Source: Candidatus Lindowbacteria bacterium RIFCSPLOWO2_12_FULL_62_27
GTDB lineage: Bacteria > Lindowbacteria > 2-12-FULL-62-27
Assembly (NCBI GenBank): GCA_001784175.1
Contig: MFPR01000038.1
Coordinates: 1-40,189, forward strand
Length of the DNA stretch: 40,189 nt
Direction of reading: 5' to 3'
Below are positions 10,777 to 40,189 of the stretch, one piece after another. The notes beneath the pieces are model-generated. The model was not told where the DNA came from and did not search any database. It was given only the letters and a program-made list of their open reading frames with translations. Both the position numbers and the translations under genes were made by a program. Position 1 is the first letter of the stretch. Each line of letters starts with the position of its first letter.

Positions 10777-10785
10777 ATGAAGATA

Positions 10786-11228: not shown

Positions 11229-11260
11229 CATTCATGCTTATAGGGTTGCAACATAGGGCC

Positions 11261-15020: not shown

Positions 15021-15123
15021 CCCCTCTCCCCCGAAGGGGGAGAGGGTCAGGGTGAGGGGGTTCTTCGGCGCCAGAATGGCCACCCTCACCCCGGCCCTCT
15101 CCCGCCAAAGGCGGGAGAGGGGG
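15021..15123. repeat. REP/REPIN-like inverted doublet of CCCTCTCCC..GGGAGAGGG hairpins (intergenic; may also terminate or stabilise the uvrC transcript)
   Basis: CCCTCTCCCCC-GAA-GGGGGAGAGGG and CCCTCTCCCGCC-AAA-GGCGGGAGAGGG with GGGTGAGGG / CCCTCACCC tails facing each other. Confidence 0.85.
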
Positions 15124-15193
15124 GAAATCCAGGAGACGGCGCATCAAATTTCCAGTCTGTGCGCTTCAGCGCACAGTGATTGAACACCGCTGT

Positions 15194-23714: not shown

Positions 23715-25265
23715 ATGCAGGTGAGTTTGAGGGCCAAGTTTGCGGGCGTGGTGCTCGGGCTGATCCTGGTGCTGATCTGCGCCATCTGGGCGCTGATGAT
23801 GCGCCAGCAGGCGGAGATGGAGAAGCGCATTTCGGAGCATCAGCGTGGGGTCATGCTGGCGGAACTCAAGAAACGGACCAGCAGCATTTTTGCGTTTCTG
23901 ACGGCCAACAGCGAGGCCCTGTCGATCGAGGACTACCTGACGGTGGACGCATTTGTCCGGGAGATGTCGCGGTCCTCCGACATCCGGTACATTCACATCG
24001 TCGTCGATGGCCGGCTCGTCGTCCCGATGGTGAAAAATCCTCCGATGTACGAGCTTCCCCGAGGCGTCGCGCCGGCGGGGACCGACGTGCGTTTTGACGA
24101 AACGACCGGGCCGGACGGCGAGCCGCTGGTGCTGGTCAGCGGGCCGATCGTGGACAAGACCATCCGCCTGACGGTGGGGTCGGCGTACGTGGCCGTGTCG
24201 AAGCAGCCCATTCTGGAGGCGATCGAGCAGGCCGCGCTGGAAGTCAGCCGCGTCGCGCAGTCGGTCCGGAGGCGGGTGACGCTGATCACGCTGATTTTCG
24301 TCGCGCTCGGCGTCGCCTGCTCGGTCGTGCTGGTCAGCATGATCGTGCGGCCCATCCGGGAACTGGCGGCGGGCGCGCGGGTGATCGGGAGCGGCAATCT
24401 GGACCATCAGGTGGAAGTGCGGTCGAGGGACGAGGTGGGGGACCTCGCGCGGACCTTCAATGAGATGACGCAGGACCTCAAGGCGGCGCAGCGGAGATTG
24501 ATCGAGACGGAAAAATTCGACCAGGAGCTGAAAATCGCGACGGAGATCCAGCAGGCGCTTTTGCCCAAAAGTCTTCCGAAGGTCCTCGGCCTGGATCTTG
24601 GAGCGTATTACAAGTCGGCGAAGGACGTCGGCGGCGACTATTACGATTACATCCCGGTCCAGAGGGACAGCCGCGGAAAAATCGCGGTCGTGGTCGCGGA
24701 CGTGGCCGGCAAGGGCCTTCCGGGGGCGGTGGTCATGTCGATGACGCGGAGCATTCTGCGGTCGCAGGTGACGCTGGCGCTGTCGACGGCCGACACGCTG
24801 CGCCGGACGAACGCGGTGCTGCAGCCGGACATCAAGGCGGGGATTTTCGTCAGCATGTTCTACGGCCTGGTGGACAGCGGCACCGGCGAGACCGAATTCA
24901 GCAGCGCCGGGCACAACACGACGCTGATTTACCGCGCAAAGACCCGAGAGGTGGAGAAGATCGACTGCGGCGGGATGGCGCTGGGCGTGGTGAGTCCCGA
25001 GCGGTTCGACGGGATGATCGAGACGAAGAAGACGGTCTTGTTGACCGGAGACATTTTGATCCAGTATACTGACGGGGTCGATGAGGCGATGAATCCGGAC
25101 CACGAGCAATTCGGGATGGACCGGCTGTACGAGGCGATCCGGAAGTGCGGAACGCGCGGCGCGCAGGAGATGCTGGAAGAAATCCAGGAGCGGATCACCA
25201 CCTTCGTGTCCGGCAACCCGCCTTCGGATGACATCACGATGGTCGCCGTGAAACGGGTGGCCTGA
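23715..25265 (+). CDS. Membrane HAMP plus PP2C (SpoIIE/RsbU-type) serine phosphatase
   Basis: Two transmembrane segments, HAMP (RPIRELA...RDEVGDLARTFNEM), ELKIATEIQQALLP, VGGDYYD, ADVAGKG, YTDGVDEA, SDDITMV. Confidence 0.95.
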   Translation: MQVSLRAKFAGVVLGLILVLICAIWALMMRQQAEMEKRISEHQRGVMLAELKKRTSSIFAFLTANSEALSIEDYLTVDAFVREMSRSSDIRYIHIVVDGRLVVPMVKNPPMYELPRGVAPAGTDVRFDETTGPDGEPLVLVSGPIVDKTIRLTVGSAYVAVSKQPILEAIEQAALEVSRVAQSVRRRVTLITLIFVALGVACSVVLVSMIVRPIRELAAGARVIGSGNLDHQVEVRSRDEVGDLARTFNEMTQDLKAAQRRLIETEKFDQELKIATEIQQALLPKSLPKVLGLDLGAYYKSAKDVGGDYYDYIPVQRDSRGKIAVVVADVAGKGLPGAVVMSMTRSILRSQVTLALSTADTLRRTNAVLQPDIKAGIFVSMFYGLVDSGTGETEFSSAGHNTTLIYRAKTREVEKIDCGGMALGVVSPERFDGMIETKKTVLLTGDILIQYTDGVDEAMNPDHEQFGMDRLYEAIRKCGTRGAQEMLEEIQERITTFVSGNPPSDDITMVAVKRVA

Positions 25266-25279
25266 GGAGCGACGCGGGC

Positions 25280-25750
25280 ATGGCGAAAACACAGGAACGG
25301 AAAAAATCGGCGGGACCCAGACTTAGGAAGACGGTATTGCGGCTGGCCGCGCAGCCGGATGCGCTCAAGGTTGTCCGGAACACCATCCTGAAGGAAGCCG
25401 GAGCGCTGCGGATCCATCCTGAAGAACTCTACTCCATGGTGCTTGCGGTGGACGAGGCCTGCGCCAACGTCATCCGGCACGCCTACAAGGACGGCCCGGC
25501 GAGGCCGATGATCATCGAGATTGAAATTACCAGCCGCCAGATGAGCATCGTGATCCGCGATTCGGGTCAGGCGTTCGATTTCGGCGAGTATCCGCGCATT
25601 CCGGTCCGGGAGGCCATCGCACAGCGGGCCGAGCGGGGATACGGGATTCAGATCATCAAGTCCGTGGTGGACCGCTGGGAACACACGCGCACAAAATCCG
25701 GCGAGAACCGGCTCCGGTTGATCAAGTACTTCCATCCGGCCGGATCCTGA
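25280..25750 (+). CDS. Anti-sigma factor serine kinase (RsbW/SpoIIAB-like HATPase)
   Basis: LAVDEACANVIRHAY, IVIRDSGQAFD, RGYGIQII. Confidence 0.9.
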   Translation: MAKTQERKKSAGPRLRKTVLRLAAQPDALKVVRNTILKEAGALRIHPEELYSMVLAVDEACANVIRHAYKDGPARPMIIEIEITSRQMSIVIRDSGQAFDFGEYPRIPVREAIAQRAERGYGIQIIKSVVDRWEHTRTKSGENRLRLIKYFHPAGS

Positions 25751-25758: not shown

Positions 25759-27663
25759 ATGCGAGACCTGCGTGTGCGTGGGCTGCCGGCCGCCATCCTT
25801 GCGATCCTGACGCTGGCCGGCGCCGACCCCGGCCGCGCGGACGACGTGCGGCCGCAGATTGCGGCGAGCGACCGGATTCGGATTCTGCTACGGTCGGAGG
25901 GCCTGGCCGCCCCCGAGGAGGACCATCTCGCGAAACTCCTGGAGGAAGCGCTGGACCGGCTTGACCTCGTCGACGTCAGCCGCGAAATCCGGCGCGGCCC
26001 CGTTTCGTCGGAGGAACTGCGCAAACGCGCGAAGGCCGAGGCCGTCCACGCGTTTTTGATCGTCGACGCCGGACTCGCGGGCGCCGCGGATGCGCGGCGC
26101 CTGACGTTGGACGGAAAATTAATTTTCCCCGAAATTTACGATCCGGTCTGGACGGCGCGGGTCAGCGCCTCCGGCGCCCCAAGTGCCGGCGTCTCCGACG
26201 CCGGCCGGATCCGTACAGGCGGCGCGACCGATACCTCGAAGCCGGCGCGGAATCCCGTCACGACGGAACAGATGCTCGAAGACGGCGCGCGGAGCCTGAC
26301 GGGAGAGTTCAGCCGCGACTGGATGACGCAGGTCGCAAAAAACAAGAGTGAGCAGGCGATGGTAGGACTGCGCGAAAAGCGCAGGGAGTTGGAGAGCCTG
26401 GAGCCCGCGGAGGCCGCGCGCGAGGCGGCACAGCTCGCGCGGGGATTCGAGCGGAGCGCCGAAAAATCTTTTGCATCAGGCGCGCACACCGAAGCGATCG
26501 AATACGCCCGGATTGCGCAGGGCCACTATGAACGGGCCATCGGCACCGCGCGCGGGGAGAGAGAAAAGCAAACGTACCGCCGGGAGCGGCTGAATCTCCT
26601 GCTCGAAGCCATCCGGAACCGGATCGACAGCGTTCCGGTCGAGCTATTGTCCGAGGATCAGCGCCGGGACCTGATCGATCTTCAGGCGGCGCACCGCGCC
26701 GTTCGTTCCATGCAGTCGCCCGACATCGAGCTGGCCATGGCAAAGGTGGAATCGATCGACACACGACTCGCCGCACTTGCGCGGGCCGCGCGCCAAACGT
26801 TTCAGGCCAGGGTCCGGGAGATTGAAATTGCGCTCGTGTCGCTCCGGGAATGGGACGCGCCGCGGATGGATGGAAAGACCTATCAGGAGATCCTCAAGGG
26901 GTTTGACGAGGCGCTCGCCGGCTACGAGCGCGGCGCCTGGCAGCAGGCGCTGATCCACCTGCGGCAGGCGGAACGGGGTGCGCAGATGACGCTCGATTTT
27001 CTGACGCGCCATGCCCGCGAACACGCCGAAGAGGAATACCTTCAAACGGTGGAACGCATGGGGCGGCTCATCAAAAAACTTTATACGGTCGCCGGCGACC
27101 GCAAAGATCTTCTTGAAACGGCGGACGCGGCCTTCAAGAGATTTCAGACCGTCAAGGGCGAGTACACGCGCGAGAAGGCGACGCGAGCGGCGCGGCAGGC
27201 GACCGATCTGTTCCGGGAGTGCGTGCAACTTTTGCAGCAGTTTCAGGAAAAACAGACCGAGCGCGCGGCGGAACTGAAGCGGCGGAAGGAGCAGATGGGA
27301 CAGAGCCTGTCGGGACTGGGTCAGCGGGGCGCGAAGCTGATGTTTCCGGACCGGTGGGTCGATCTCCAAGGGCTCTGGCGCGCCGTCGAGCCGCTGGAGG
27401 GGGAGCGTCTCATCGAACAGGATTCGACCCTCCTGCATCTCAACCGGCTCATCGATCAGATGGACCAGAGCATTTCCTCCATGATCGAACAGCCGATGAG
27501 CGAGTTTTCGCGGGCCATCGTAAAGCGCCGGGAAAACGGGAAGCCGTGGGAGGCGCTGGAGCGCAAGCGCCGCCTGGCGGAGGTCTACCTCCGGGAGGGC
27601 CTCGTCCCGGACGCGCTGGTAATCTTCAAGGAGTTGGAGACGGAGATCGCGGCGGGGCAGTGA
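25759..27663 (+). CDS. Hypothetical exported, largely helical/coiled-coil protein
   Basis: 634-aa ORF 8 nt after the RsbW-like gene; signal-like N-terminus; E/R/A/L-rich helical composition; no family recognised. Confidence 0.7.
   Translation: MRDLRVRGLPAAILAILTLAGADPGRADDVRPQIAASDRIRILLRSEGLAAPEEDHLAKLLEEALDRLDLVDVSREIRRGPVSSEELRKRAKAEAVHAFLIVDAGLAGAADARRLTLDGKLIFPEIYDPVWTARVSASGAPSAGVSDAGRIRTGGATDTSKPARNPVTTEQMLEDGARSLTGEFSRDWMTQVAKNKSEQAMVGLREKRRELESLEPAEAAREAAQLARGFERSAEKSFASGAHTEAIEYARIAQGHYERAIGTARGEREKQTYRRERLNLLLEAIRNRIDSVPVELLSEDQRRDLIDLQAAHRAVRSMQSPDIELAMAKVESIDTRLAALARAARQTFQARVREIEIALVSLREWDAPRMDGKTYQEILKGFDEALAGYERGAWQQALIHLRQAERGAQMTLDFLTRHAREHAEEEYLQTVERMGRLIKKLYTVAGDRKDLLETADAAFKRFQTVKGEYTREKATRAARQATDLFRECVQLLQQFQEKQTERAAELKRRKEQMGQSLSGLGQRGAKLMFPDRWVDLQGLWRAVEPLEGERLIEQDSTLLHLNRLIDQMDQSISSMIEQPMSEFSRAIVKRRENGKPWEALERKRRLAEVYLREGLVPDALVIFKELETEIAAGQ
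26162..26207 (+). repeat. Twin-hairpin 46-nt intragenic element, copy 3
   Basis: Identical 46-mer, read in a different frame as VSASGAPSAGVSDAGR. Confidence 0.9.
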
Positions 27664-27669: not shown

Positions 27670-30345
27670 TCAGCGTCGCCTTTTCCCGCGCTCCGGTTTG
27701 ACCGGCGCGGCCGGCGGAGGCAATCTCGCCTGAAGCTCCGAAAGGAGCGCGCCGGCGTCCTGCCAGTTGCCCAGGCTCAGGGCGCGCTCGGCCAGCCGGT
27801 GGAGCGTGCGGAGATGGGCGGGAAATCCCGAGTCGGTGACGCGGCCGGCGAGGGAGGAGAGGGTTTCCCTGAAAGATTCCTGACAATACGCCTGAACAAG
27901 GATCGTATAATGATTGAGGAGCCTTAAGGCTCGGATGGCCGTCAGCGTGTCTCCTTCCACGTAACTGTTCATGGCCGATTCGTAGAGTTGCTCGAGCCGG
28001 CGGTCCATGCCGGCCGGCGGATTCTGGTGCGCCGGCAACGGCAGATGGGACTTCAGCCATTTTCGGGCCGTTGCGAGGGAGAGTTCGAGCGGCGTGACGA
28101 GAAGCGGCGTATCGGATTTGAGCGAAAGCTCGCGCACGTCGGTCAACTGAAACTGGTCGACCGGCGCGGGCAGGATTTGGGGAGAGGACGGAAAGACGAG
28201 AAGGGGGACCACCAGCCGGCTTCCGGCCTTCACCGGGACGGCGGGATCGAGCCGGTTGATCTGCGCGAGGAAATTCTGAAGGCGCGCGTCCTTGTAAAAG
28301 AGGAGGGCCAGGCGGGACAGCTTATCGGGCTTCGCCGCCACGGTTTCGATGTAAAGATCGAGCGGCTGGGGCCGCCGCTCTTCCCGGCCCAGACGTTCGT
28401 ACGAGGAGAGAATCGAGCGGATCACCATGTCGCCTCCGACCACGGCGCCGGGAACCGCGATGCGGGCGCCATCAAACAGTCCGGGGACGGGCGCATAATG
28501 AACGTCCAGCCGCTGCCGGACCGTCGCCCCGGCAAGATCCCTGGCGGTGACGATGATGGCGTTCGGTCCCTCTCTTAGAAGGAAATCCGCCGAAAATGAA
28601 TCGGCGCCGCCCTGCACCAAGACAGGAAGCGGGTCGAACAGAACCGTGTCCGGAAACCGGTCGATCACACGGCCGGTCACGCGCAGAGCTGGATCGGAGG
28701 TTCTGGCCGGGGTGGAATCCAACGCGAGACGCGGCGGCGCGGAATCCCACACAAGGGTTTCGCGGAATTCGTCCGTGTTGAAGAAACGGTCTTCGGCCGT
28801 GAGGACCATCATCTGCGTTTCGGCGGACAGCGTGGTCTCGATCTCGAATTTTCCGGTCGTCGGATCGAAACGGCGGAGCGCGCCGGCCGGCGACACCGTC
28901 AGCTTGGCCAAGGCGTCGTCCTCCAACTGGCCCTTGATCGAAACGGCCGGCGTTCTGGAAAATCCCGGCCGGTCGAGCCGGACGAGCCGGGGGGGTTCAT
29001 GGTCGACCGGCAGTCTCAACTGGCTTTCATTTCGGTCTGTCCTGATTTTCATCACCGCGACACCGCCCAAACTCTGCCGGCTGTCCAGCCAGACGCTCCG
29101 GCCTTCCACGCGAACGGGGCCGCTGTCCCAACGGTCGGCGCCCGGAAGGCGCACTGCGGCGAGGCGGGTCCGTTCGGTCGTCAACACATCGACCCTGATC
29201 TGGCCCGGAGAAAATATTTCGATGTCGGGCTCAAACTGGATCAGAGGCCGGACGAAGGGCCGCAGGACGAGTCCCAGAGATTCCGTTCCGATCAGCCATC
29301 CCTTTTCAGTGACCAGGATCCGGTTGATCGACTCGGACCGGGAACGGTCCGGAAAGAGATATATTTTTTCCCAGGTTTTCGTTTCCGCGTCGTAGCGGCT
29401 GATTCCGTCGACGGTGGAAACCAGCCGTTCCAGGCCGTTGGCCGCGATGTGCCGGGCCTCGTCGTCCGTCAGTCCCTGCAGCGTCGTGTAGTGCTCCCAG
29501 CGGGTTTCGTCGATATGATACCGGAACACGCCGCGCTCGGCCGAGCCCAGCCAGAGTTCCTGCCCTGCAAGGACGGCCGAGGTGAAGGCCGGCATGGCGT
29601 AGCCTTCCATGAAAGGGATGGATTCCCATTCATCGGAACGCGGTAGATAGCGCCGGACGTCCGCGCGCGTTGCGACAAACAAGTCGGCGGGGCCGGGGGC
29701 AAACGCGGTGATGTCATTCGATTCGCGGCCCTTCCCGAACACGGCGTAATCCAGATCGCCGGTCGACAGGTTCATCCGCGTGATACCCCAGCCCCGCGTG
29801 CCCATCCACAGGTTGCCGCGCCAGGCCGCCAGCGCCGTGAGAAAATTTCCGGAAAGACCATGTTGCTTCTGCAAAACTTTTTTCACCGCGCCGGACCGGT
29901 CGAGACCGGCCAGTCCGCCATCCGTGGCGGCCCACACGGTCCCCCCGTGCGCCAGGAGGCCGGACACGTATCGGCCCGGCAATCCGTGCTCGGGGCCGAT
30001 GCGGCCCACCTGCTCCATACCGGCCGCCGTGTCAACCAGCCGGACCCGCACGATCCCGTCGGTCGTGCCCGCCCAGAATTCCGGGCCGACCTGCGCGATG
30101 GACTTGATTTGCAAGCCCGCCCCAAACGACGCGTCGGACATGGCCCAATTCTTGCCCGGAGCAATCCCCCCTCTCCCGCCTACGGCGGGAGAGGGTAGGG
30201 GTGAGGGTGGCAGGGTTCGATCGCCGCCCTCCGCCCCCCTCACCTCAATCCTCTCCCCCCTGCGGGGGGAGAGGAGGTGAATAGTTGCGTCTGGGGCGAG
30301 CACGATCAGTACGGCGAGGACGCCTGTCATGCGAAAAATTCTCAT
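27670..30345 (-). CDS. Exported beta-propeller (two-component-regulator-propeller-like) + Ig-like + LysM-like + helical protein
   Basis: Blade motifs GLPGRYVSGL..VWAATDGGL, GLSGNFLTAL..LWMGT, LWLGSAERGV; Ig-like LREGPNAIIVTARDLAG; LysM-like PDKLSRLALLFYKDARL...INRL...GSRLVVP. ATGA overlap with the upstream gene. Confidence 0.8.
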   Translation of the reverse strand: MRIFRMTGVLAVLIVLAPDATIHLLSPRRGERIEVRGAEGGDRTLPPSPLPSPAVGGRGGIAPGKNWAMSDASFGAGLQIKSIAQVGPEFWAGTTDGIVRVRLVDTAAGMEQVGRIGPEHGLPGRYVSGLLAHGGTVWAATDGGLAGLDRSGAVKKVLQKQHGLSGNFLTALAAWRGNLWMGTRGWGITRMNLSTGDLDYAVFGKGRESNDITAFAPGPADLFVATRADVRRYLPRSDEWESIPFMEGYAMPAFTSAVLAGQELWLGSAERGVFRYHIDETRWEHYTTLQGLTDDEARHIAANGLERLVSTVDGISRYDAETKTWEKIYLFPDRSRSESINRILVTEKGWLIGTESLGLVLRPFVRPLIQFEPDIEIFSPGQIRVDVLTTERTRLAAVRLPGADRWDSGPVRVEGRSVWLDSRQSLGGVAVMKIRTDRNESQLRLPVDHEPPRLVRLDRPGFSRTPAVSIKGQLEDDALAKLTVSPAGALRRFDPTTGKFEIETTLSAETQMMVLTAEDRFFNTDEFRETLVWDSAPPRLALDSTPARTSDPALRVTGRVIDRFPDTVLFDPLPVLVQGGADSFSADFLLREGPNAIIVTARDLAGATVRQRLDVHYAPVPGLFDGARIAVPGAVVGGDMVIRSILSSYERLGREERRPQPLDLYIETVAAKPDKLSRLALLFYKDARLQNFLAQINRLDPAVPVKAGSRLVVPLLVFPSSPQILPAPVDQFQLTDVRELSLKSDTPLLVTPLELSLATARKWLKSHLPLPAHQNPPAGMDRRLEQLYESAMNSYVEGDTLTAIRALRLLNHYTILVQAYCQESFRETLSSLAGRVTDSGFPAHLRTLHRLAERALSLGNWQDAGALLSELQARLPPPAAPVKPERGKRRR
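30166..30288. repeat. REP/REPIN-like inverted doublet inserted in frame near the 5' end of the propeller gene
   Basis: CCCTCTCCCGCC-TAC-GGCGGGAGAGGG and CCTCTCCCCCC-TGC-GGGGGGAGAGG; same architecture as 15021-15123. Confidence 0.85.
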
Positions 30346-33300
30346 TCGGTTTCGTTCCGTTTCAGTTTCTCAATCTTCTTCCGGGCGCGTTCGATGTAAT
30401 CCCGGGCCTTCACGTTGTCCGAATCGATCGCCAGGACCCGGTTCCAGTCGGCGACCGCTTCGTTCAGGCGGCCCTCCTGGTAGTGGCCGAGACCCGAGAA
30501 GATATACTGGCTGATCGCGCCCGACTTCTCTGTTTTCCATCGTTGCTGCAATTCTTCAAGCCTCCGGGCCCATTCCGTCTCGCCGGACCGCGCCGCCGCA
30601 TGGCGCGCGTCCAGCGTGAGGATCTGGCGGTAGAGAGACAGCACATGCCGGGCACGCTGCATCGCGAGGTCCGTCCGGTTCTGATCCACCGCGAGCTGGA
30701 CTTTCTGACGGTAGCGGTCCGCTTCCTGCAACCATCCGGCGATGTGTTCGGCCGAGCGGTCCACGACGGGCGCGCCCTCGATCGCGATGGCGCGCTCCGC
30801 CTCGGCGCGCGCCATGCTCAAGCGGTCGATCTCGTTCAAGCCGGTCCGGGCACCCGCGTTCTCGGGATCGACGCGCAAGACAGCCCGGAACGCGGCGCGG
30901 GCCGATTCGTACTGGCCGGCGTCGACCGCCGCCCGGCCCTGGTCCATCCACTGGGCCAACTGTGTAGCGAGGCCGCTGCGTGCGTCCGCCAGACGCGTGC
31001 GAACTTCCGGATGGTCGGCATGCAATTTTTCCGCGGCCTGATAGGATTCGACGGCCTTCAAAAGATTTCCCTGCTCGCGCAGCCGGTCGCCCTCCCGCAG
31101 GTGCCACGCGATCTGATCGTCCAGGGACTGCCGGGCGCTCGCGAGATAATTGTTGACGAGCTTGCGCTGCGGATCCGCCTTCCGGACTTCCTCCCAGACC
31201 TCGATGGCCTTCATGAAATTCCCCTGCTCGTACAGGTTGACGCCGGTGACGAATTTCTCCTCAAGGTCTTTTTCGCGCACCGCCTGATCGATGCGGCCCC
31301 GCGCTTCCTCGATCAGCGAGCGGGCGCCGGCCAGGCTCGAATACTCGGACAGCGCCATCTCCCAGACCGCGATGGCTTGCTCGAAATGGAGGTTGCGATA
31401 ATGCGTGAGGCCCGCGTTGAACAACTGCTGGGCCCGCGCCAGATCCGTCTTTTCCTTGTTCCTCCGCTCCGCGTCCGCGCGGAGCTGCCTTGCGCGAACG
31501 TCGTCGGGGTCGACCGAGATGATCCAGTCCAGCGTCGCGATGGCGGGCTCGTATTCTTCCTTCGAGAACCGCCCCAGGGCGTCGGCGTATTCTCTCTCGA
31601 TGCGCGGCAGGAGGAGACTTCGGATCTCTCCGCGGCCTTTTGCCGCGGCCTCGTTGTAGGGATCGACCGCGAGCGCCCGATTGTAGAATTTCAGCGCCTG
31701 CTCCGGATCGCCGCCCGCTTGGAGACGCGACGACTCCGACACCATCGACCGGACGAACGACAGGAACCGTCCGGCGTGGGCCTCAATGCGCTTGCGGACT
31801 TCCGGATGATCGATCTCGCGCGCCAGGATCTCCTGCCAGGCCTTGAGCGCGACATCGACATTGCCCTGGTTCATGGCGGCGTCGCCGAGCTTCAGTTTCT
31901 CCGATATCTCCTCCGCCCGGCGGATCTGCACCTCCTGCAGGATGGCGCGGGCCGGAGCGTAGTCCGGGTCGAGGGCGAGACTGTGAGAGGCGAGCAACTC
32001 GGCCGCGTCGATCTGGCCCTTCAGAAACTCCGCCTGCGCCAGAAGCTCGAACCGCGCCGCCTCCTGCTTGCGCTCGTCCGGTTCCAGTTGCGCCTGGCGG
32101 AACTGCGCGAGCTGTTCGAGCACGGCGGCGGCCTTCGGATGGCCGTCGGCGCGGCGGACGAGAAGCTGGAGCCGGCTCTCGGCCTCGTCCCACCGGCCCC
32201 TCCGATATTCCTCAAGGCCTTTCCGGTACAGCTCGTAGCGGTCCCGGAACTGTTCGCGCTCGATCAGCCGCGTCTTGGCCGCCTCCAGATATCGCCGGGC
32301 GGCCGAGTGGGCCGGCTGGAAGTAGAGGACGCGTTCCATCTCCCGCGCGGCGTCGCTCAGATTGCCGATCAGATATTCGGTCAGGCCCCTCACGAAATGC
32401 TGTTCCACGAATGTGTCGCGCGTCGATTCGATGTGCGCCTTCGCGGTCAGCGCCTTGTCGAACGCCGGGTCGTGCTCGAGGATCGACCGCACGATCCGGT
32501 CGGCCTCCACGAGGTCGCCGGCGGCCAGACGCCGCTCCGCCTCCGACCACGGGGCGAGGACGTTCTGGTCGTAATCCTTGCGCGTTTCCGCCATGTACCG
32601 GCGGGGCATGGGGTTGGACGGCTGGAGTTTCTGCGCCTCCTCCCATTCCTGCATCGCCTTCGGATATTCCTTCTTCGCCCGGTGCGTCAGCCCGCGCTGC
32701 AGCCGCTCGCTCGCGACGGTGCCCTGGGACTTGCCGAACTCGTACGACAGCGACAGCCGCTGGAAGTTGTCGAAGAGGCTCGACGGGAGGATCGCGTAGT
32801 CGAACTTGAGGTCGCTGAACCGGAACCCGAACCCGAAGGTCGGATCGCCGTTGTCGAGGCCGGTGCGGACCGCCAGCCAGGACTTGGGCAGCCACTCGAG
32901 GCCGAAGTGGATGCGGTGGACGTCCACCGTTGTGAGGTCGAGATCGAGCGCGAACTGCAGCCAGTCGAACATGCGGTAGGAGGCGCCGAGCTTGGCGGCC
33001 ATCGGCAGTTTTTCGGCGACCGTCTTGAGCTTGATCTGCGGCTCGATGAAGTTCTGGACGTTGAGGCCGAGCGACAGCTTGTCGGTGATCCCGTCCGACT
33101 GCGCATGGCGGATGACGCCCTCGAAGAACGGAATGGCCTCCCGCAGCTTGCCGGCGTCGTACAGCTCGACGCCGCGGTTGAACCACGCGGACAGCGTCGC
33201 CTCCCGCAAGGACATCGGCGGGTTGGCGCGGAGGAACTCGACCATCGCGCGATGGCCGTTGGTGATCGCCCGCGCCTGGAACTGATAGCCCTTGCGCCGG

Positions 33301-34055
33301 CCGGCGTCGATGGTCCGGTCGCGCAGCTTGCGGGCTTCCTTGTAGTCGCGATCCAGCTCGAGCGCCTTCTCGAGCATCGCGAAGGCCCTCGGCAAATCGC
33401 CGTTCTGGAAGGCCTGCGCGCCCTGGTCGTAGAAGCCCTCGGCCTGGCTGCGAATCTGCGCCTTCGCCAGCGTCAGGTACGCGCGGCTGAACTCGACGTA
33501 GGCGTGGGTGAACCGGTAGAGCGCGCCGACGTCGAGGCCGAATCCGGTGCCGGAGAATTCCGCGATCTGCTCGCGGAGCACGTGCAGGGTGCTGCCGACG
33601 TACAGCGAGTTGGTGATCTGCTTGCCGTAGCCGAGCATGAAATTCATCTTGCTGATGTCGAAGGTCCCGATGTTCCCGCCCGCCGTGTTGCGGCGCGTCA
33701 GGTCGCCCCAGCCCTCCAGCACCATGCCGCCGCCGATCGTGCCGAACCGGCCGACCGGATGCTTGTAGGCGAACATGTTGTACCAGGTCTTGTCGAAGTA
33801 CGTCTTCGAGTACTGCCCGAAGAGTTCGTACCGGCGGTCGAGGTCGAGCGCGGCCGGATTCCAGAAGACGGCGGTCGCGTCGTCCGCCATCGCCATGTAG
33901 GCGTTGCCCATGCCGGCCGGCCGAGCGCCGAATCCGAGTTTCTTGCTCGGCTCCACCACGCCGCCCTTCTGGGCTTCGGCGAACGTCGCGGCCGTCCAGA
34001 CCAGGAGGAACGCCGCGGTGATCAGCACCCGGAACATGCGGTTAACGGTGGTCAT
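30342..34055 (-). CDS. PorV/PorQ (UPF0164, FadL-like) outer-membrane barrel with an internal TPR insertion and ~800 aa of C-terminal TPRs
   Basis: Signal peptide; GFGARPAGMGNAYMAMADDATAVFWNPAAL signature; amphipathic strands ending QRLSLSYEFG; many TPR-like helices. ATG 34055 overlaps the upstream TGA; GTG 34058 is an alternative. Confidence 0.88.
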   Translation of the reverse strand: MTTVNRMFRVLITAAFLLVWTAATFAEAQKGGVVEPSKKLGFGARPAGMGNAYMAMADDATAVFWNPAALDLDRRYELFGQYSKTYFDKTWYNMFAYKHPVGRFGTIGGGMVLEGWGDLTRRNTAGGNIGTFDISKMNFMLGYGKQITNSLYVGSTLHVLREQIAEFSGTGFGLDVGALYRFTHAYVEFSRAYLTLAKAQIRSQAEGFYDQGAQAFQNGDLPRAFAMLEKALELDRDYKEARKLRDRTIDAGRRKGYQFQARAITNGHRAMVEFLRANPPMSLREATLSAWFNRGVELYDAGKLREAIPFFEGVIRHAQSDGITDKLSLGLNVQNFIEPQIKLKTVAEKLPMAAKLGASYRMFDWLQFALDLDLTTVDVHRIHFGLEWLPKSWLAVRTGLDNGDPTFGFGFRFSDLKFDYAILPSSLFDNFQRLSLSYEFGKSQGTVASERLQRGLTHRAKKEYPKAMQEWEEAQKLQPSNPMPRRYMAETRKDYDQNVLAPWSEAERRLAAGDLVEADRIVRSILEHDPAFDKALTAKAHIESTRDTFVEQHFVRGLTEYLIGNLSDAAREMERVLYFQPAHSAARRYLEAAKTRLIEREQFRDRYELYRKGLEEYRRGRWDEAESRLQLLVRRADGHPKAAAVLEQLAQFRQAQLEPDERKQEAARFELLAQAEFLKGQIDAAELLASHSLALDPDYAPARAILQEVQIRRAEEISEKLKLGDAAMNQGNVDVALKAWQEILAREIDHPEVRKRIEAHAGRFLSFVRSMVSESSRLQAGGDPEQALKFYNRALAVDPYNEAAAKGRGEIRSLLLPRIEREYADALGRFSKEEYEPAIATLDWIISVDPDDVRARQLRADAERRNKEKTDLARAQQLFNAGLTHYRNLHFEQAIAVWEMALSEYSSLAGARSLIEEARGRIDQAVREKDLEEKFVTGVNLYEQGNFMKAIEVWEEVRKADPQRKLVNNYLASARQSLDDQIAWHLREGDRLREQGNLLKAVESYQAAEKLHADHPEVRTRLADARSGLATQLAQWMDQGRAAVDAGQYESARAAFRAVLRVDPENAGARTGLNEIDRLSMARAEAERAIAIEGAPVVDRSAEHIAGWLQEADRYRQKVQLAVDQNRTDLAMQRARHVLSLYRQILTLDARHAAARSGETEWARRLEELQQRWKTEKSGAISQYIFSGLGHYQEGRLNEAVADWNRVLAIDSDNVKARDYIERARKKIEKLKRNETE

Positions 34056-37000
34056 CACTTGGCCACCGCGATTCTGTCCGTGGCGACTTCGGACGAGCCG
34101 TCGGTGTACTCGACGGTCAGACGGACGAAATACCCGCCATTCAGGACGACGCGGCCCTGGCCGTTGCGTCCATCCCAGGTCGGCGCCTGGACGAGCGTGT
34201 TGAAGAGGTTCACACCGGCGCCGTAGGTGACCGGGCCGATCACCCGCACCAGTTCCCCGGTGAAGTCATAAATCCGGATCGTCGCGGAACCCGCCTTGGT
34301 CATGTTCCACGCGAACTTGAATCCGCTCCAGGTCGTTCCCTGCTCCGTGTAGCTCTCAAACGGGCTGGCCGGGTTCGGGAATCCCCGGAAGGTCTCCTGG
34401 GCGGACTGGCCGGCGGCGAATTCGAAGACGACGGCGTACATCGAGAAGTTCTTGGACGAGCCTTTGATGGTGGCCGTCTCCCCGTATAGATTCAGCGACG
34501 CGTCGGACACCGACTCCCACAGGCGCGTGGTTTCGTTGTAATGCGAGAGCGTCAGCATGTGGGCCGTCAGCGGCGTGCCGTCGGCCTCGTAGAAGGCCGT
34601 GGGTTGCGTCACGTCGAGTTCGATGCCGAGCGGCTCGGCGAAATCGTCCGGCACGAGCGGGGTCAGGACCGTCGGATTGGCGAGGTTGATCTTCGCGATC
34701 GTGAAGTCGTAGATGGACTGGCCAAGCTCGGCCGGCAGAAGCTCCATGAACGGCATGTTCTTCGCGGTCTCTTTCGACTCCTCGAGCACCACCTTGTTGG
34801 TCGAGTCGGGATCGGTCACCGCCATCCAGACGGGCCCGAGACCCGGCTTGAAGAGGCCCGGCTTCAGCTTCAGCCGCGCCTTGCCGTCCGGCGACGCCGC
34901 CGAATCGATCGAGGCGAGCTGCTCGGCCGAGATGAGCGTGTTGAAGACGGTCGTCGTGGTCGCCTGTTTGTAGTCCGCCGGCTCGTCCTGGTCGCGGACG
35001 CTGGTGTCGACGCGCAGGTAGAACCGCCGGAGCGCCGGCCAGGCCGTGTCCGCATAGACCGCCTGGATCTGCACCGTCCGGCTGTCCAAGACCGTCACGG
35101 ACTGGGTGACGCTCACGCCGGCCGCGTCGACCAGCGCGACGGAGGTCTCGGTGACCGTCGACGAGTCGACCGGGATGTTGAAGGTGACGATCAGCGGCAG
35201 GAGCCGGTTGTCGGTGTCAAACGGCGGCGGCAGGAGATACGTGCCGTCCGTCGGATGCGTCGTGTCGACGGCCGGGTATCGCGTGCGGACCGTGTAGGTG
35301 TCGGACCGCACGGGCGCGCCGAGGACGTTCAGATCATCGAGCGAATCGATCCCGCGGACCTTGACGTCCGAGTTCGACGCGATCTCGACGTAGAACATGG
35401 AGTTGATCGTAAGATTCGCGGCCGTGACATACGCGACGAGCACCGGAACCGTTTCGGCGGCCTGAACCGTGAACGGCGTCCCGCTTAGCGTGGCCGAGGA
35501 ACCGGAGAAGGTTCCGGACCAGAGGAACGTGTCGCGCGTGCCGAGGGATCCGATCGTGTCGGCGTCCATGTAGAGCCGGACCTGCGTGACGGCGGACGCC
35601 GGCATCGACCCGGTGTGGGTCACCTTGACCTGCGAGACCGACACCGCCTCCTGGCGGTCGGCGGCGAAGTTGAAGACGGCGACGGCGTTCGTGTCGCTCT
35701 CCTGGACGGTGAACCGCTTGGGCTGCGTGTCGGACCGGGTCAGGAAGAGCCGGCCGGGCCGGGCCTTGAGCGAGATCGACCGGACGGGCGCGCCGGTGAT
35801 GCGGATCGTGTCGCCGGTCACCACGCCGACCGCATAAACGTCCGCGTTCGCGGCCAACACCAGAGCGTAGGTGTCGCCCGCGACAAGGGTCGTGTCCATG
35901 TTCGCAACCACGAGGACCGAGATGCGGCCCAGGGACGGCACGCGGACGGTGTCGCCGATGTTGCTGAAGGTCGCGATCGAGCCGGCCAGCGCGGCGCGCT
36001 GGACGAACGTGTCGGTCGGGGACGCGTCAAGAACTCCGTCGGAATCGCCGTCGAGGTACAGATCGACAAACTCGATCTCGGTGTCCGGACCGAGGGAGCC
36101 TGTGTCATAGCGGAAGACCATGGTGTCGATCCGGACGGGTTCCGGCGCGCCGGCGGCCGTCAGCGCGAGCTGCAGCCATTCGACGTTCGAGGAATCGTCG
36201 TCGACCTCGGTGTCGACGGGAGGATGGGCGCCCTGGCCCAGCGCGAGGCTGGCCTCGAAGAGGACGCGGATCGTGTCCTGGCTGAAGTTCGACAGCCGGT
36301 CGTGTCCGAAGACGCGGAGGACGTAGATGCCGGCGGTGTTGAGGCTGACGTCCACGGCCCAGCGCGAGTCCGCGCTCAGGATCGCGACGCTGTCCACGAT
36401 CACGCCGTTGACTTCGATGCTGACCGAATCCATGCCCACCAGCGTGTCCCGGGCCGTGCCGAAGAACCGGATCGTCGACTCGATCGTGTCGACGCCGTCC
36501 TCCGGCCCGTCGATCGTGAGGATCGGCGGCGCGGTGTCCACTGTGAACTTGCGGGTCACGGTCGTGTCGAAGTTGCCCGCCGTGTCGATCGCCAGGACGC
36601 GCCAGTAGTAGAAGCTGTCGGCGAGGGTCGCCGGAACGAACGTGGTGTCAAGCACGATCGTCGAGGCCTGGAGGACCGACGCGAAGGTCGTGTCGCCCGC
36701 GATCTGGAGGACGAAGGTCTCGCCGCCGTCGTTGCTTGTCCACGTGAACCGCGGCTGACGGTTGATCGTATCGTGGTTGTCCGCCGGCGTGAGGAGCGTC
36801 ACGATGAGGCTCGTGTCGATGACCAGTGCCCTCGAATCGGAGGCGCGGGTCGGCACGCCCGCCGTGTCGACCGCCACCACGCGCCAGCGGTATGTGCCTT
36901 CCGTCAGGAACGGCGTCACATCCCATTCCGTGTCGTACTGGGTGTCGGACCGGATGGGCGCGGTGAAGCTCGTGTCGTCGAGCGCGGCGACCTGGACGAC

Positions 37001-40000
37001 GTAGAAGTTCAGGCCGGTGACGGTGTCGCGCGACGCTTGCCACGCCATGGTTGGCGTCGTGTCGTTCCGCGTGTAGCCCTCGGCCGGAGACGCCAGGGAG
37101 ACCTCGACCGGGGCGCCGGTATCGACGTAGAGCCGCCGGATCACGGACGTGTCGTAATTGACGGCGCGGTCCTCGGCCAGGATTCTCCAGTAATAGACGC
37201 TGTCGGTCAGGCCCGGCGTCCGGTAGGACGGCACGCCGACCACCTGCGTCGTCTCGGCCACGCGCGTGAAGGCCGAGTCGAAGGCGATCAGGATCACGAA
37301 GGTTTCGCCGTCGCTCGACCAGACGAAGGTCGGCCGCGTGTCGGTCGTGAACGTGTCGTCCGCAGGGGCGGTCAGGACGACCCTCACGCCGGTGTCGAGC
37401 CGGAAGTCGAACGAATCCGAGTAGGGGCCGCGGTTGCCCAGATCGTCGATGCCCTGGACGCGCCAGTAATAGGTGTCCTCCACCAGGATCGTCAGCGTGT
37501 CGCTCGTGACGGCGGCGTCGACCGTGTCGGCGTAGGACACGAACGCGAAGGACGGGCTGGGTGTGACTTCCAGCGAGTAGCTGTCGACGCCGACGCTGTC
37601 CGCGGCGATCGCCTGCCACGTGAAGGTCGGCGTCGTGTCCTTCGTCACGAGGCTGTCCACCGGCGAAAGCAGCAGCACCCGGGCGACGTCGGTGTCGAGG
37701 AGGAACCCGCGCGTGTCGGAGTAGGCGCCGATGTTCGCGAGTTCGTCGATCGCGCGGACGCGCCAGAAGTACGTGTCGTTGTACAGGCCGGTGACCGTGT
37801 CGGCCGTCCGGGTCCCGTCGATCGTGTCGACGAAGTCGGCGGCGGCGAACGTCAGGAGTTTCGAGAGTTCGACCACGTACGAATCGATGCCGACGCTGTC
37901 GGCCACCGACTGCCACGTCACCACGGGCATGGCGTTCGTCGTCTCGTGGGCGTCGGCCGGCTGGATCGCGGAGACCTGCGCGACGAACGTGTCGAGGAGA
38001 ATGATGCGGAAAGTCGTCGTGTCGTAATTGCCCGCCGCGTCCTGGCCGATCACGCGCCAGTAGAACGTGTCCTGCTCCGGCAGGCGCCGCAGGGCCTGCA
38101 GCGCGGCGGTGTCGACGACGGAATCGAGGGTCGTCGAGAAGGCCGGGCTCTTGGAGAGCTGCCACGTGAACGTTTCCGCGTCGGTCGTGCTCCAGATGAA
38201 CATGACGTTGACGTTGGTCGTCTCGTGGCCGTCGGCCGGCGCCACCAGCGAGACGGTCAGGCTCGTGTCGATCACGAGCCGGAACGTGTCCGGCGCAAGA
38301 TCGGTGCGGTTGCCGAGATCATCGATCGCGTGCACGCGCCAGTAATAGGTGTCCTCCGTCAGGAACGGGCCGATCGTGTAGCTGGTGACGGCCATGTCGA
38401 CGGTATCGGCGCGGGCGATCACGGCGAAGCTCGCGCCGGCCGAGACCTCGATGGCGTAACTGTCGATGCCGACGCTGTCGGTCGTGATCGCCTGCCACGT
38501 CAGGGTCGGCGTCGTGTCGTTGGTGCGCGTGCCCTGCGAAGGCGACAGGAGGACAACCTTCTCGACGGCCGTGTCGACGATGAAGCCGAACGTATCGGAA
38601 TAGGCGCCGACATGACCCAGATGGTCGATCGCCCGGACGCGCCAGAAGTAGGTGTCGTTGTAGAGGCCGGTGATCGTGTCGGACGCCGACGTGCCGTCTA
38701 CCGTGTCGATGAGGACCGCCGCCGTGAACGCCGCCGACTTCGATACTTCGACGATGTAGGAGTCCACGCCCACGCTGTCGGACAGCGTCTGCCACGAAAC
38801 GACGGGCGTCGCGTTCGTTGTCTCGTGCGCGTTCGCCGGGCTTGCGGCCACGACCGCGTCGATGTCCGTGTCGACCACAAAACCGCGGGTGTCGGAGAAC
38901 ATGCTGATGTTGCCGAGGTCGTCCACCGCGCGCACGCGCCAGTAGTACGTGTCGTTATAGAGTCCCGTGATCGTGTCGCCGGCGGCCACCGCATCCAGGG
39001 TGTCGGCAAAGATCGCGACCGAGAACGACAGGAAGTTGGAGGCTTCGACGACGTAGGAATCGACGCCCACGCTGTCCGACACCGCCTGCCACGTCACGAC
39101 CGGCGTTGCGTTCGTCGTCTCATGCCCGGCGGCAGGCTGAACGAGGGCGACTTTCTCGACCGCCGTGTCGATGATGAATCCGCGCGTGTCGCTAGTCGGG
39201 CCCACGTTGCCCAGATCGTCGATCGCGCGCACGCGCCAGAAGTACGTGTCGTTGTAGAGACCCAGGACCGTGTCGGCCGTGAAGGCGCCGTCGGCGGTGT
39301 CGACGAAGACGGTCGAGGTGAAGGCCAGAGTCTTTGAAACCTCGACCACGTACGAGTCGATGCCGACGCTGTCGGACACCGCCTGCCAGGAGACGATCGG
39401 CGCCGCGGTCGTCGTCTCGTGGCTGTTGGCCGGCGCGGCGAGCGCCACCGGATAGACCGACGTGTCCAGGACAAGGGTCCGGGCGGCGGCGGTATCGAAA
39501 TTGCCGGCGGCGTCGGACCCAATGACCCGCCAGAAGTACGTGTCCTGGTCCGGCAGGTCGCTTCGGACCTGGATGGCGGAGGTGTCAACGGCGGAGTCGA
39601 TGATCGTCGTGAACGCGGCGCTCTTCGAGAGCTGCCAGGTGTACGTTTCGGCGTCGAGCGAGGACCACAGGAACGTCACGCGTGCGTTGGTCGTTTCATG
39701 GCCGGCGGCCGGGCTGACCAGCGACACCGCCATGCTCGTGTCGACGATGAACCGGAACGAATCGGGGGCAACATCCAGGCGGTTGCCCAGCTCGTCGATC
39801 GCCAGGACGCGCCAGTAGTACGTGTCCTCCACCAGGAAGTTCTGGGCGCTGTCGCTGGTCCGGGATACGTCGAGGGTGTCCGCCAGGATCAGGGACGTGA
39901 AGTTGACATTTCTCGAAAGTTCGATGGCGTAACTGTCGATCCCCACGCTGTCCGCCAGTGCCGCCCAAGTAAAGAGCGGCGTCGAGTCGTTGGTCCGGAG

Positions 40001-40189
40001 GCCATGGACGGGCGCGAGAAGCGTGACGTTCCGAACGGATGTGTCAAGGAGGAACCCGCGGGTGTCGGCGTAGGCGCCGATGTTGCCGAGATCGTCGATG
40101 GCCCGCACGCGCCAGTAGTACGTGTCGTTGTACAAACCCGTCACCGTGTCGCTCAGCCGCAGCCCGTCCACCGTGTCCACAAACTGCGG
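34055..40189 (-). CDS. Giant D-T-rich surface protein, 5'-truncated (>=2044 aa): 13 Fn3-like repeats, Ig-like domains, C-terminal FlgD-Ig / T9SS-CTD-like domain
   Basis: Frame is open to the window end. Thirteen WR(V/I) repeats; Big_5-like PAVDTTHP..IVTFNIPVD; C-terminus FPNP...ATIRIYDFTGELVR...WDGRNGQGRVVLNGGYFVRLTV...IAVAK. Confidence 0.93.
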   Translation of the reverse strand, partial: PQFVDTVDGLRLSDTVTGLYNDTYYWRVRAIDDLGNIGAYADTRGFLLDTSVRNVTLLAPVHGLRTNDSTPLFTWAALADSVGIDSYAIELSRNVNFTSLILADTLDVSRTSDSAQNFLVEDTYYWRVLAIDELGNRLDVAPDSFRFIVDTSMAVSLVSPAAGHETTNARVTFLWSSLDAETYTWQLSKSAAFTTIIDSAVDTSAIQVRSDLPDQDTYFWRVIGSDAAGNFDTAAARTLVLDTSVYPVALAAPANSHETTTAAPIVSWQAVSDSVGIDSYVVEVSKTLAFTSTVFVDTADGAFTADTVLGLYNDTYFWRVRAIDDLGNVGPTSDTRGFIIDTAVEKVALVQPAAGHETTNATPVVTWQAVSDSVGVDSYVVEASNFLSFSVAIFADTLDAVAAGDTITGLYNDTYYWRVRAVDDLGNISMFSDTRGFVVDTDIDAVVAASPANAHETTNATPVVSWQTLSDSVGVDSYIVEVSKSAAFTAAVLIDTVDGTSASDTITGLYNDTYFWRVRAIDHLGHVGAYSDTFGFIVDTAVEKVVLLSPSQGTRTNDTTPTLTWQAITTDSVGIDSYAIEVSAGASFAVIARADTVDMAVTSYTIGPFLTEDTYYWRVHAIDDLGNRTDLAPDTFRLVIDTSLTVSLVAPADGHETTNVNVMFIWSTTDAETFTWQLSKSPAFSTTLDSVVDTAALQALRRLPEQDTFYWRVIGQDAAGNYDTTTFRIILLDTFVAQVSAIQPADAHETTNAMPVVTWQSVADSVGIDSYVVELSKLLTFAAADFVDTIDGTRTADTVTGLYNDTYFWRVRAIDELANIGAYSDTRGFLLDTDVARVLLLSPVDSLVTKDTTPTFTWQAIAADSVGVDSYSLEVTPSPSFAFVSYADTVDAAVTSDTLTILVEDTYYWRVQGIDDLGNRGPYSDSFDFRLDTGVRVVLTAPADDTFTTDTRPTFVWSSDGETFVILIAFDSAFTRVAETTQVVGVPSYRTPGLTDSVYYWRILAEDRAVNYDTSVIRRLYVDTGAPVEVSLASPAEGYTRNDTTPTMAWQASRDTVTGLNFYVVQVAALDDTSFTAPIRSDTQYDTEWDVTPFLTEGTYRWRVVAVDTAGVPTRASDSRALVIDTSLIVTLLTPADNHDTINRQPRFTWTSNDGGETFVLQIAGDTTFASVLQASTIVLDTTFVPATLADSFYYWRVLAIDTAGNFDTTVTRKFTVDTAPPILTIDGPEDGVDTIESTIRFFGTARDTLVGMDSVSIEVNGVIVDSVAILSADSRWAVDVSLNTAGIYVLRVFGHDRLSNFSQDTIRVLFEASLALGQGAHPPVDTEVDDDSSNVEWLQLALTAAGAPEPVRIDTMVFRYDTGSLGPDTEIEFVDLYLDGDSDGVLDASPTDTFVQRAALAGSIATFSNIGDTVRVPSLGRISVLVVANMDTTLVAGDTYALVLAANADVYAVGVVTGDTIRITGAPVRSISLKARPGRLFLTRSDTQPKRFTVQESDTNAVAVFNFAADRQEAVSVSQVKVTHTGSMPASAVTQVRLYMDADTIGSLGTRDTFLWSGTFSGSSATLSGTPFTVQAAETVPVLVAYVTAANLTINSMFYVEIASNSDVKVRGIDSLDDLNVLGAPVRSDTYTVRTRYPAVDTTHPTDGTYLLPPPFDTDNRLLPLIVTFNIPVDSSTVTETSVALVDAAGVSVTQSVTVLDSRTVQIQAVYADTAWPALRRFYLRVDTSVRDQDEPADYKQATTTTVFNTLISAEQLASIDSAASPDGKARLKLKPGLFKPGLGPVWMAVTDPDSTNKVVLEESKETAKNMPFMELLPAELGQSIYDFTIAKINLANPTVLTPLVPDDFAEPLGIELDVTQPTAFYEADGTPLTAHMLTLSHYNETTRLWESVSDASLNLYGETATIKGSSKNFSMYAVVFEFAAGQSAQETFRGFPNPASPFESYTEQGTTWSGFKFAWNMTKAGSATIRIYDFTGELVRVIGPVTYGAGVNLFNTLVQAPTWDGRNGQGRVVLNGGYFVRLTVEYTDGSSEVATDRIAVAK

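Follow-up and report, generated by a model that had tools for sequence, protein, structure and literature searches.

Type IX secretion is presented as a trait of Bacteroidota, or at most of the Fibrobacteres-Chlorobi-Bacteroidetes (FCB) group (PMC8564354, PMC12398890), with all type A cargo carried by a single general shuttle, PorV (PMC12618676), and with PorP/SprF-like proteins associating with type B cargo (PMC9143113, PMC12618676). Here we analyse a 40,189-bp window, the entire contig MFPR01000038.1 of Candidatus Lindowbacteria bacterium RIFCSPLOWO2_12_FULL_62_27 (GCA_001784175.1), an uncultured bacterium of groundwater; the window carries a gene for a giant repeat protein whose C-terminal domain (CTD) resembles those of type IX cargo and, overlapping it, a gene for a PorV/PorQ-family barrel fused to tetratricopeptide repeats (TPR). 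We show that these genes belong to a recurrent cargo-barrel pair and suggest that the barrel is a dedicated carrier and anchor for its neighbour.

The closest described counterparts are the PorZ-PorQ and PorU-PorV pairs of the Porphyromonas gingivalis attachment complex, in which, as in the arrangement suggested here, a surface protein with a retained CTD is held by a barrel of the PorV/PorQ family (PMC10202324, PMC5562754); the retained CTD is what PorZ uses to bind PorQ, and the existence of cognate barrels resembling PorV has been hypothesised (PMC10202324). A cognate PorV-like barrel that holds a retained CTD is already in print for PorZ-PorQ, and has been proposed for type B cargo with PorP/SprF (PMC10202324, PMC9143113, PMC12618676). 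Likewise, in SprB-SprF and PG1035-PorP-PorE a cargo gene is linked to its own barrel, a specialised shuttle or anchor (PMC9143113, PMC12618676), and giant adhesins are typical cargo. PorV (LptO) of the Flavobacterium johnsoniae SprA-PorV translocon (6H3I, 8GL6) is the best structural match of our barrel, and 8GL6 holds, according to its entry title, a cargo CTD bound in a PorV-containing complex; the interface predicted here lies on the outer loops of the barrel. Finally, PorA-PorXY of P. gingivalis links a type IX secretion system (T9SS) cargo or surface component to envelope signalling (PMC12152298).

The differences here lie in the host phylum, in PorU, which is apparently lacking, in how many barrels are private, in the type-A-like tail, in the TPR insert and arm, and in a phospho-switch neighbour. 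Unlike PorQ and PorV of P. gingivalis, the barrels here are non-equivalog, all of them below the PorV and PorQ cut-offs (that of the window is nearer PorQ than PorV, at 72.7 versus 26.9 bits, a trend shared by nine of ten paralogues tested), 15 cargo-specific pairs have adjacent genes, a giant repeat protein takes the place of a processing enzyme as cargo, the barrel has a TPR insert and arm, no PorU was found in the genome, and the host lies outside Bacteroidota. Unlike in type B systems, the CTD is nearer type A and FlgD_ig, and the barrel belongs to the PorV/PorQ and not the PorP/SprF family. PorE, a periplasmic protein that works with PorP, carries a TPR of its own, whereas here the TPR is fused to the barrel; PorV of F. 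johnsoniae has no TPR, whereas the barrel here has TPR domains and is private to its cargo. In place of the PorXY two-component system there is a HAMP-PP2C and RsbW-like partner-switching set, linked to the pair by gene order only. The split between type A and type B is mirrored within this one genome, where 21 homogeneous CTDs have no neighbouring barrel and 15 diverse ones do. A literature search, with most subscription journals outside its coverage, returned no description of such modules outside Bacteroidota.

Results

Cargo and barrel genes form a recurrent pair

The genome (4.39 Mb in 44 contigs, 94% complete) is called G000 below and three related genomes G001, G002 and G003, the last being of the same family as G000; these four make up the phylum sample that was compared, and C-numbers denote contigs, the window being C38. 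NCBI taxonomy places Candidatus Lindowbacteria among the unplaced candidate phyla, in keeping with the suspicion of the first-pass annotation, made from the DNA of the window, that the host lies outside Bacteroidota. Positions 27670-40189 are filled by three minus-strand frames of at least 2044 (open at the 5' end), 1238 and 891 amino acids (aa), which that annotation had joined into one cargo, shuttle and anchor module of a divergent T9SS-like pathway. The cargo-barrel part of this proposal has stood up well and the third gene has not: the real unit is the gene pair, not the trio. At the junction of the pair the cargo frame ends ...GCC AAG TGA, and the ATG that follows shares the A of the stop, so that the TGATG overlap described earlier is indeed present at 34057-34053 on the minus strand.

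This junction recurs. Of the 19 PorV-like barrel open reading frames (ORFs) in G000, 15 start -48 to +156 nt from the stop of a CTD gene on the same strand. Of the other four, one is a fragment, one comes immediately after another barrel, one lies ahead of a CTD gene, and one is close to the start of a contig. All ten barrel paralogues tested pass the PorV_fam model, and none passes an equivalog cut-off. The 15 CTDs with a neighbouring barrel are diverse (median identity 28%), and the 21 without one are alike (median 61%); these tails occur on C13, C18, C6, C28, C34 and other contigs. Identities among the CTDs correlate with those among the barrels (Mantel r 0.81, with 0 of 5000 permutations as high), and this remained so when the three TPR modules were removed (r 0.71, again 0 of 5000), which means that each pair is duplicated and diverges as a whole. 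Sister modules of a giant CTD gene and a PorV-TPR gene stand on C9 and C13, with tails that match that of the window at E 8e-42 and 2e-38, and PorV-TPR matches were found in all four genomes of the phylum sample, those of G000 and G002 being full-length and those of G001 and G003 truncated where the contigs end.

Outside the phylum we sampled 80 loci that were the best matches to the barrel, a sample biased by likeness to the query in which related genomes are not independent; it spans FCPU426, Firestonebacteria, Elusimicrobiota, Zixibacteria, Ignavibacteria, Latescibacterota and others. Among barrels in these genomes with enough upstream DNA, 45 of 88 follow a CTD gene. Many of the unpaired ones have a CTD protein of ~1000-1090 aa 60-2500 nt downstream, which, judging by size and CTD alone, we take to be PorU. 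With 15 recurrences in G000 and 45 among the 88 barrels elsewhere, the cargo-then-barrel junction exceeds chance.

Some further loci of G000 bear on the range of such genes. No cargo lies upstream of the barrels C21:910-1857 and C26:1385-2281, two candidates for general carriers. The minus strand of C2 (43824-110684) holds a frame of 22,286 aa that ends in the same type of tail, with a PorV-like barrel 156 nt downstream, and several contigs of the genome end inside such giant genes.

The cargo and its C-terminal domain

The cargo gene (34055-40189, minus strand) has an open frame of at least 2044 aa, and because its N-terminus is cut off by the contig end a signal peptide would lie out of view. 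Most of the visible protein consists of about 13 tandem immunoglobulin (Ig)/FN3-like modules of 92-101 aa each (36440-40189, minus strand), delimited by the spacing of a Y(Y/F)WRV motif and by Pfam matches to Ig_Rha78A_N (91 bits), Big_13 (54 bits) and fn3 (47 bits). The last 130 aa (34058-34447, minus strand) form the CTD, recognised from profiles and conserved motifs as divergent and both T9SS type-A-like and FlgD_ig-like, and the tail motifs read as they had first been written down: FPNP...IRIYDFTGELVR...WDGRNGQG...GGYFV...AVAK.

FlgD_ig is the only Pfam family that the tail passes (27.5 bits against a cut-off of 27); CHU_C fails at 14.3 bits against 27. The tail also matches the CTD at the end of the PorU model (E 6e-5). 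That model (NF033707) found 32 places in G000, all of them CTD-like domains only, and 28 of the 31 places examined lie no more than 16 residues from the end of their protein. A profile of the genome's own CTDs, built from 28 such tails and run over 14,665 ORFs, identified 36 proteins with a CTD that ends at the C-terminus; the cargo of the window is one of them (75 bits, the profile ending at residue 2044 of 2044), and it carries the motifs that the aligned tails share, namely PNP, IxIYD..G.LV, WDG.N..G, G.Y and a final AVxK. When 47 CTDs upstream of barrels were compared with curated models at E <= 1, 45 matched TIGR04183 (best 1.4e-10), 44 the tail of PorU and 41 the tail of PorZ; TIGR04131 matched only 5. 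We take the cargo tail to belong to the T9SS type-A CTD superfamily, in a divergent form that falls short of the curated model. The whole would be a giant surface protein of Ig/FN3 repeats, exported by Sec and probably serving as an adhesin or fibre.

A PorV-like barrel with a TPR arm

The second gene (30342-34058, minus strand) encodes 1238 aa from GTG 34058; ATG 34055 and ATG 34037 are further candidate starts, and a 1231-aa form on record begins at the latter. Its N-terminus is signal-peptide-like. The PorV/PorQ signature that had been noticed at its beginning is borne out by the PorV_fam model (NF033709), whose cut-off of 90 bits the protein exceeds with 116.2, matching in two stretches on either side of an insert. 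A model of residues 1-500, made from an alignment of 83 rows, has a predicted local distance difference test (pLDDT) score of 89.5 and a predicted template-modelling (pTM) score of 0.81, and shows a signal peptide, a short plug-like segment and 14 strands, with six helices (residues 186-320) between strands 6 and 7 and further helices from residue 448. In the DNA, on the minus strand throughout, the plug-like segment and strands 1-6 (residues ~36-185, PorV_fam positions 9-162) correspond to 33504-33953, the helical, TPR-like insert to 33099-33503, strands 7-14 (residues 328-441, ending ...SLSYEF; PorV_fam positions 166-326) to 32736-33077, and the C-terminal TPR arm of ~790 aa that follows the 14th strand, recognised by TPR_2 (128 bits), TPR_1 (104 bits) and other TPR families, to 30345-32717.

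The barrel is PorV/FadL-like: in a Foldseek search of the model the top solved structures were the PorV chains 8gl6_F (E 3e-12) and 6h3i_F (E 5e-12), followed by FadL and TodX, at a sequence identity to the PorV chains of only 12-13%. The alignments of short paralogues cover residues ~17-180 and 329-442 and leave out the insert, which is kept in all nine aligned sequences (the query and eight full-length relatives with 38-44% identity). Since the insert follows an even-numbered strand and the arm follows strand 14, both would, under the usual porin topology, face the periplasm. The paired barrels of C28 and C10 also carry C-terminal extensions (513 and 632 aa, one with a TPR match), and periplasmic arms on PorV-like barrels would therefore be common in this genome.

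A predicted complex of the CTD with its barrel

Barrel residues 31-446 and the CTD, each with an alignment that we built ourselves, were modelled as a complex alongside three controls. The three runs scored 0.82, 0.83 and 0.82, and the best control scored 0.00; 116 of 157 solved complexes reach the mark used for this score, as do 2 of 215 mismatched pairs, counts that hold only roughly here because our own alignments were used. The runs agree in >=99% of contacts, with a partner pLDDT of >=88. The predicted contacts lie on the barrel loops after strands 1, 3, 5, 7, 9 and 13, that is, on the face opposite the insert, and on the PNP, IYD..GELV, G.YFV and AVAK stretches of the tail. An interface between CTD and barrel is thus predicted well above the controls. 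As a like complex has already been solved (8GL6), this result shows likeness to a known interaction, not binding by this particular copy.

Remaining components of the secretion machinery

The earlier statement that porU, sprA and porKLMN are absent holds within the window, and for sprA it does not extend to the genome. In a search of 25 genomes, G000 among them and 13 of them from the FCB group, the SprA model scored above its cut-off in 14, including all 13 of the FCB group, and matches of any strength occurred in 23; those in G000, G001 and G003 are weak (in G000 69.9 bits against a cut-off of 200). The protein behind the match in G000, on C20, has 1825 aa, a signal peptide and a terminal F, and it is collinear with a Zixibacteria SprA that is itself above the cut-off (E 5.6e-28) and with a SprA-like protein of Desantisbacteria (E 1e-54). 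We read it as a remote homologue of SprA. With a remote SprA homologue present, the modules would elaborate on a T9SS-like route instead of forming a self-contained system.

No PorU-type C25 peptidase (Peptidase_C25) was matched in G000, G001 or G002, and G003 has one weak partial match of 26.9 bits. The same search provides its own positive control, as Peptidase_C25 is present in 16 of the 25 genomes, including 13 of 13 from the FCB group. The searches for PorKLMN are uninformative. The GldL, GldM and GldN models (TIGR03513, TIGR03517 and TIGR03523) returned nothing in G000, and GldM_1st (PF12081) returned nothing in any of the 25 genomes, G000 included; GldL, GldM and GldM_1st found nothing even in genomes of Rhodothermales, Cytophagia and Ignavibacteria that have a full SprA and PorU, and it is because of this failure that the result carries no information. 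GldK matched only the FGE-sulfatase (sulfatase-modifying-factor) part of proteins, everywhere, and the best GldK-like place in a Cytophagia genome, considered as a possible gldLMN operon, proved not to be one.

The third gene and the repeat at its start

Gene 3 (27670-30345, minus strand) encodes 891 aa from ATG 30345 or 823 aa from ATG 30141, and sequence collections hold both forms, one the shorter and another the longer. The ATGA overlap with the barrel gene that had been reported is there in the DNA (TGA 30344-30342, ATG 30345-30343); its use as a coupled start is uncertain because a GC-rich palindromic repeat of ~120 bp with GGGAGAGG-type arms fills ~30164-30289, between the overlap and the next ATG, and is in frame in the long form. 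This repeat has 75 further blastn matches across the genome. From ATG 30345, residues 1-19 are signal-peptide-like and residues ~20-61 are translated repeat, and from ATG 30141 the product is a propeller protein without a signal peptide; we lean somewhat towards the long form, with the repeat translated in frame. Contigs of later groundwater DNA runs from another study (X8 and X10) match gene 3 and the barrel gene in part, at ~96% identity, covering pieces within 27900-30110, and 11 of 20 listed differences in gene 3 fall at third codon positions. Among the contigs of four DNA runs none bridges or skips the repeat at ~30160-30257, where they break. A weaker copy of the repeat (75% identity) lies between two other genes of the window, at 15023-15125.

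That gene 3 encodes a regulator-type propeller, as first read, is supported by its model and by its relatives, which carry Reg_prop and also Glucodextran_B above cut-off. In the model of the 823-aa form a seven-bladed propeller occupies residues 10-300, with pLDDT mostly 80-97, and three Ig-like domains occupy residues 300-550; the tail of ~270 aa has a pLDDT of <50. Among solved structures it most resembles the periplasmic sensor domains of hybrid two-component systems from Bacteroides, and PorZ (5m11) stands at rank 29 with E 1e-11. The LysM domain of the first description is unconfirmed: there is no Pfam match (PF01476) at E <= 1, in a region where pLDDT is <50, and the structural neighbours of the tail in the Atlas, mostly LysM clusters, are all under the bar. 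Likeness to PorZ does not extend to its defining features: PorZ has two propellers and a CTD, whereas gene 3 has one propeller, no CTD and no match to NF052228 (nor to any NCBIfam model at E <= 0.1).

Conservation of the trio was not found. The sister modules on C9 and C13 are followed by no paralogue of gene 3, and G001, G002 and G003 hold no orthologue, matches there being to the repeat only. Among 1.84 billion representatives there is no full-length relative; 5316 of them match at E <= 0.001, through the propeller and Ig repeats only, and none covers the tail. Gene 3 would thus be a lineage-specific, probably periplasmic propeller/Ig accessory and not a core part.

A phospho-switch and other neighbours of the pair

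The gene conserved with the pair is a different one, a HAMP-PP2C/RsbW-like switch that the first-pass annotation had missed. On the plus strand of the window stand, in order, a PEGA lipoprotein gene, a gene for a membrane HAMP-SpoIIE (PP2C) sensor phosphatase (23715-25265; Pfam), one for an RsbW-like anti-sigma serine kinase (HATPase_c_2, 25280-25750; Pfam 88 bits), and one for a secreted 634-aa protein that has a signal peptide and belongs to no known family (25759-27663), for which an Atlas look-up gave sub-threshold leads only. Homologues of the phosphatase occur at three sister loci, where HAMP-SpoIIE directly follows the PorV-TPR gene (C13, G001:C101 and G002:C105), and homologues of the kinase occur at sister loci as well. 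On C13 (17356-20000 of locus L105) HAMP-SpoIIE is followed by STAS, an RsbW-like kinase and a SpoIIE-HATPase_c_2 fusion, a complete partner-switching set; on G001:C101 an RsbW-like kinase and the fusion come next, and on G002:C105 the contig ends after HAMP-SpoIIE. The phosphatase of the window scores 549-559 bits to its homologues in G002 and G001. In the window the phosphatase and kinase genes are on the opposite strand, oriented towards the module and separated from it by gene 3 and the 634-aa gene, and the ORF list shows no STAS ORF between phosphatase and kinase. Two hydrophobic segments of the phosphatase flank a loop of ~150 aa, and the protein could therefore sense the periplasm, where the TPR arm should be.

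The 634-aa gene ends 6 nt from the stop of gene 3 (plus-strand TGA 27661-27663, minus-strand stop 27670-27672), which leaves no room for terminators between the two convergent genes. The rest of the window, whose G+C content is ~64%, holds housekeeping genes (glycine cleavage, UvrC, Sua5) and a second giant gene (1-10716, minus strand) that matches Lamin Tail Domain and fn3, encodes at least 3572 aa and runs off the contig at its 3' end. A sigma-54 activator (AAA+, HTH_8) without an N-terminal sensor or receiver domain is encoded at 11302-12453 on the minus strand, within the stretch of lowest GC in the window (0.56 at 10001-12000).

Discussion

We consider it reasonably probable that the barrel is a dedicated carrier and anchor for its giant cargo, as with PorZ-PorQ or SprB-SprF. 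The cargo would cross the outer membrane through the remote SprA-like translocon, and the barrel would then take the CTD on its extracellular loops; because the lineage has no detectable PorU sortase, the barrel would probably keep the CTD and so act as a non-covalent anchor at the cell surface. The helical insert and the ~790-aa TPR arm would hang in the periplasm as a scaffold, and conserved gene order suggests that the arm may talk to the membrane HAMP-PP2C phosphatase, which would drive the partner-switching cascade.

Several points weigh against this reading. The cargo CTD lies below the curated cut-offs (13.9 bits against 23 for TIGR04183, 12.1 against 27 for Por_Secre_tail, PF18962), and the barrel lies below those of the equivalog models (26.9 against 250 for PorV, NF033710; 72.7 against 220 for PorQ, NF033711; 51.6 against 325 for PorV2, NF052325). 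The N-terminus of the cargo is beyond the contig end. The SprA homologue is remote and proposed from sequence, and neither the PorLM/GldLM motor nor the PorKN ring was found, in searches that failed in positive controls too. The ORFs of the genome come from a naive caller, and the loci in other genomes were drawn by likeness to our own barrel. A periplasmic place for the insert and arm follows from strand parity only, the co-divergence of cargo and barrel would be expected from pair duplication alone, with no specificity between them, and the score of the predicted complex may reflect likeness to the solved one instead of binding by this copy.

PorV of Bacteroidota shuttles type A cargo to the attachment complex (PMC5562754, PMC10202324), and the type-A-like CTD would suit a barrel that only ferries its specific cargo, with an unrecognised protease removing the CTD and the cargo being released or attached elsewhere, a role for which the weak C25 match in G003 might be cited. 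We think such transient shuttling unlikely, given that a search which worked in the controls turned up no C25 peptidase in G000, G001 or G002, and that one barrel per cargo, 15 times over and with co-divergence, exceeds what a carrier needs. The three-part display module first proposed, with gene 3 as a PorZ-like propeller/Ig/LysM anchor, seems more doubtful again: no relative of gene 3 follows the modules on C9 and C13 or those in G001 and G002, no orthologue exists in the three related genomes, the protein has neither a CTD nor a match to the PorZ model or to Pfam LysM, and the repeat sits between the overlap and the next ATG. What speaks for it is the arrangement of three genes on one strand with overlapping stop and start codons, a propeller in the PorZ superfamily, a signal-peptide-like start at the ATGA overlap, the LysM clusters, under the bar as they are, among the Atlas neighbours of the tail, and the ~96%-identical strain of the later groundwater runs, which also holds pieces of gene 3.

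Autonomous export, in which the PorV-like barrel itself would export its neighbour with no need of SprA, draws on the tightly coupled cargo-then-barrel order, reminiscent of two-partner systems, and on the failure to detect PorKLMN with models that failed in controls too. It strikes us as very improbable, since a plugged 14-strand barrel of FadL type is an unlikely channel for a protein of >2000 aa, a SprA homologue, however remote, is encoded in G000 and SprA matches occur throughout most of the sampled genomes, and a route would still be needed for the 21 CTD proteins that have no barrel to themselves. That cargo and barrel are unrelated neighbours, the tail an ordinary FlgD_ig Ig-like domain and the barrel a FadL-like channel for the uptake of hydrophobic compounds, is scarcely credible: FlgD_ig is the sole Pfam family that the tail passes, and FadL and TodX are strong fold matches, but the tail is always the last domain, nearly all such tails match TIGR04183 at E <= 1, the 15 adjacent pairs co-diverge, PorV chains outrank FadL, and an interface is predicted with high confidence.

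A dedicated carrier and anchor could also be more than a mount. In a PorU-less and perhaps PorKLMN-less T9SS-like pathway, in a phylum for which no type IX secretion has been described, PorV-TPR barrels might be the outer-membrane ends of a relay from the surface to the cytoplasm, an extension that we regard as rather unlikely as it stands. The occupancy of the displayed protein, or the mechanical load on it, would be relayed by the insert and TPR arm to the HAMP-PP2C phosphatase at its periplasmic loop, and the phosphatase would flip the partner-switching cascade and hence gene expression.

A candidate phylum outside the FCB group thus has a genome with 36 CTD proteins, 19 PorV-like barrels, a remote SprA and no PorU that could be found, in which most barrels each have a giant cargo of their own. 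These findings suggest a type IX-like route of surface display that reaches further across bacteria than textbooks say. If the carrier-and-anchor reading is true, the non-covalent mounting of giant adhesins, by a CTD kept on its cognate barrel, may be both old and widespread, and the PorU/anionic lipopolysaccharide (A-LPS) sortase route would be a later addition. TPR-armed barrels beside a phospho-switch would, moreover, offer a testable route from surface display to signalling.

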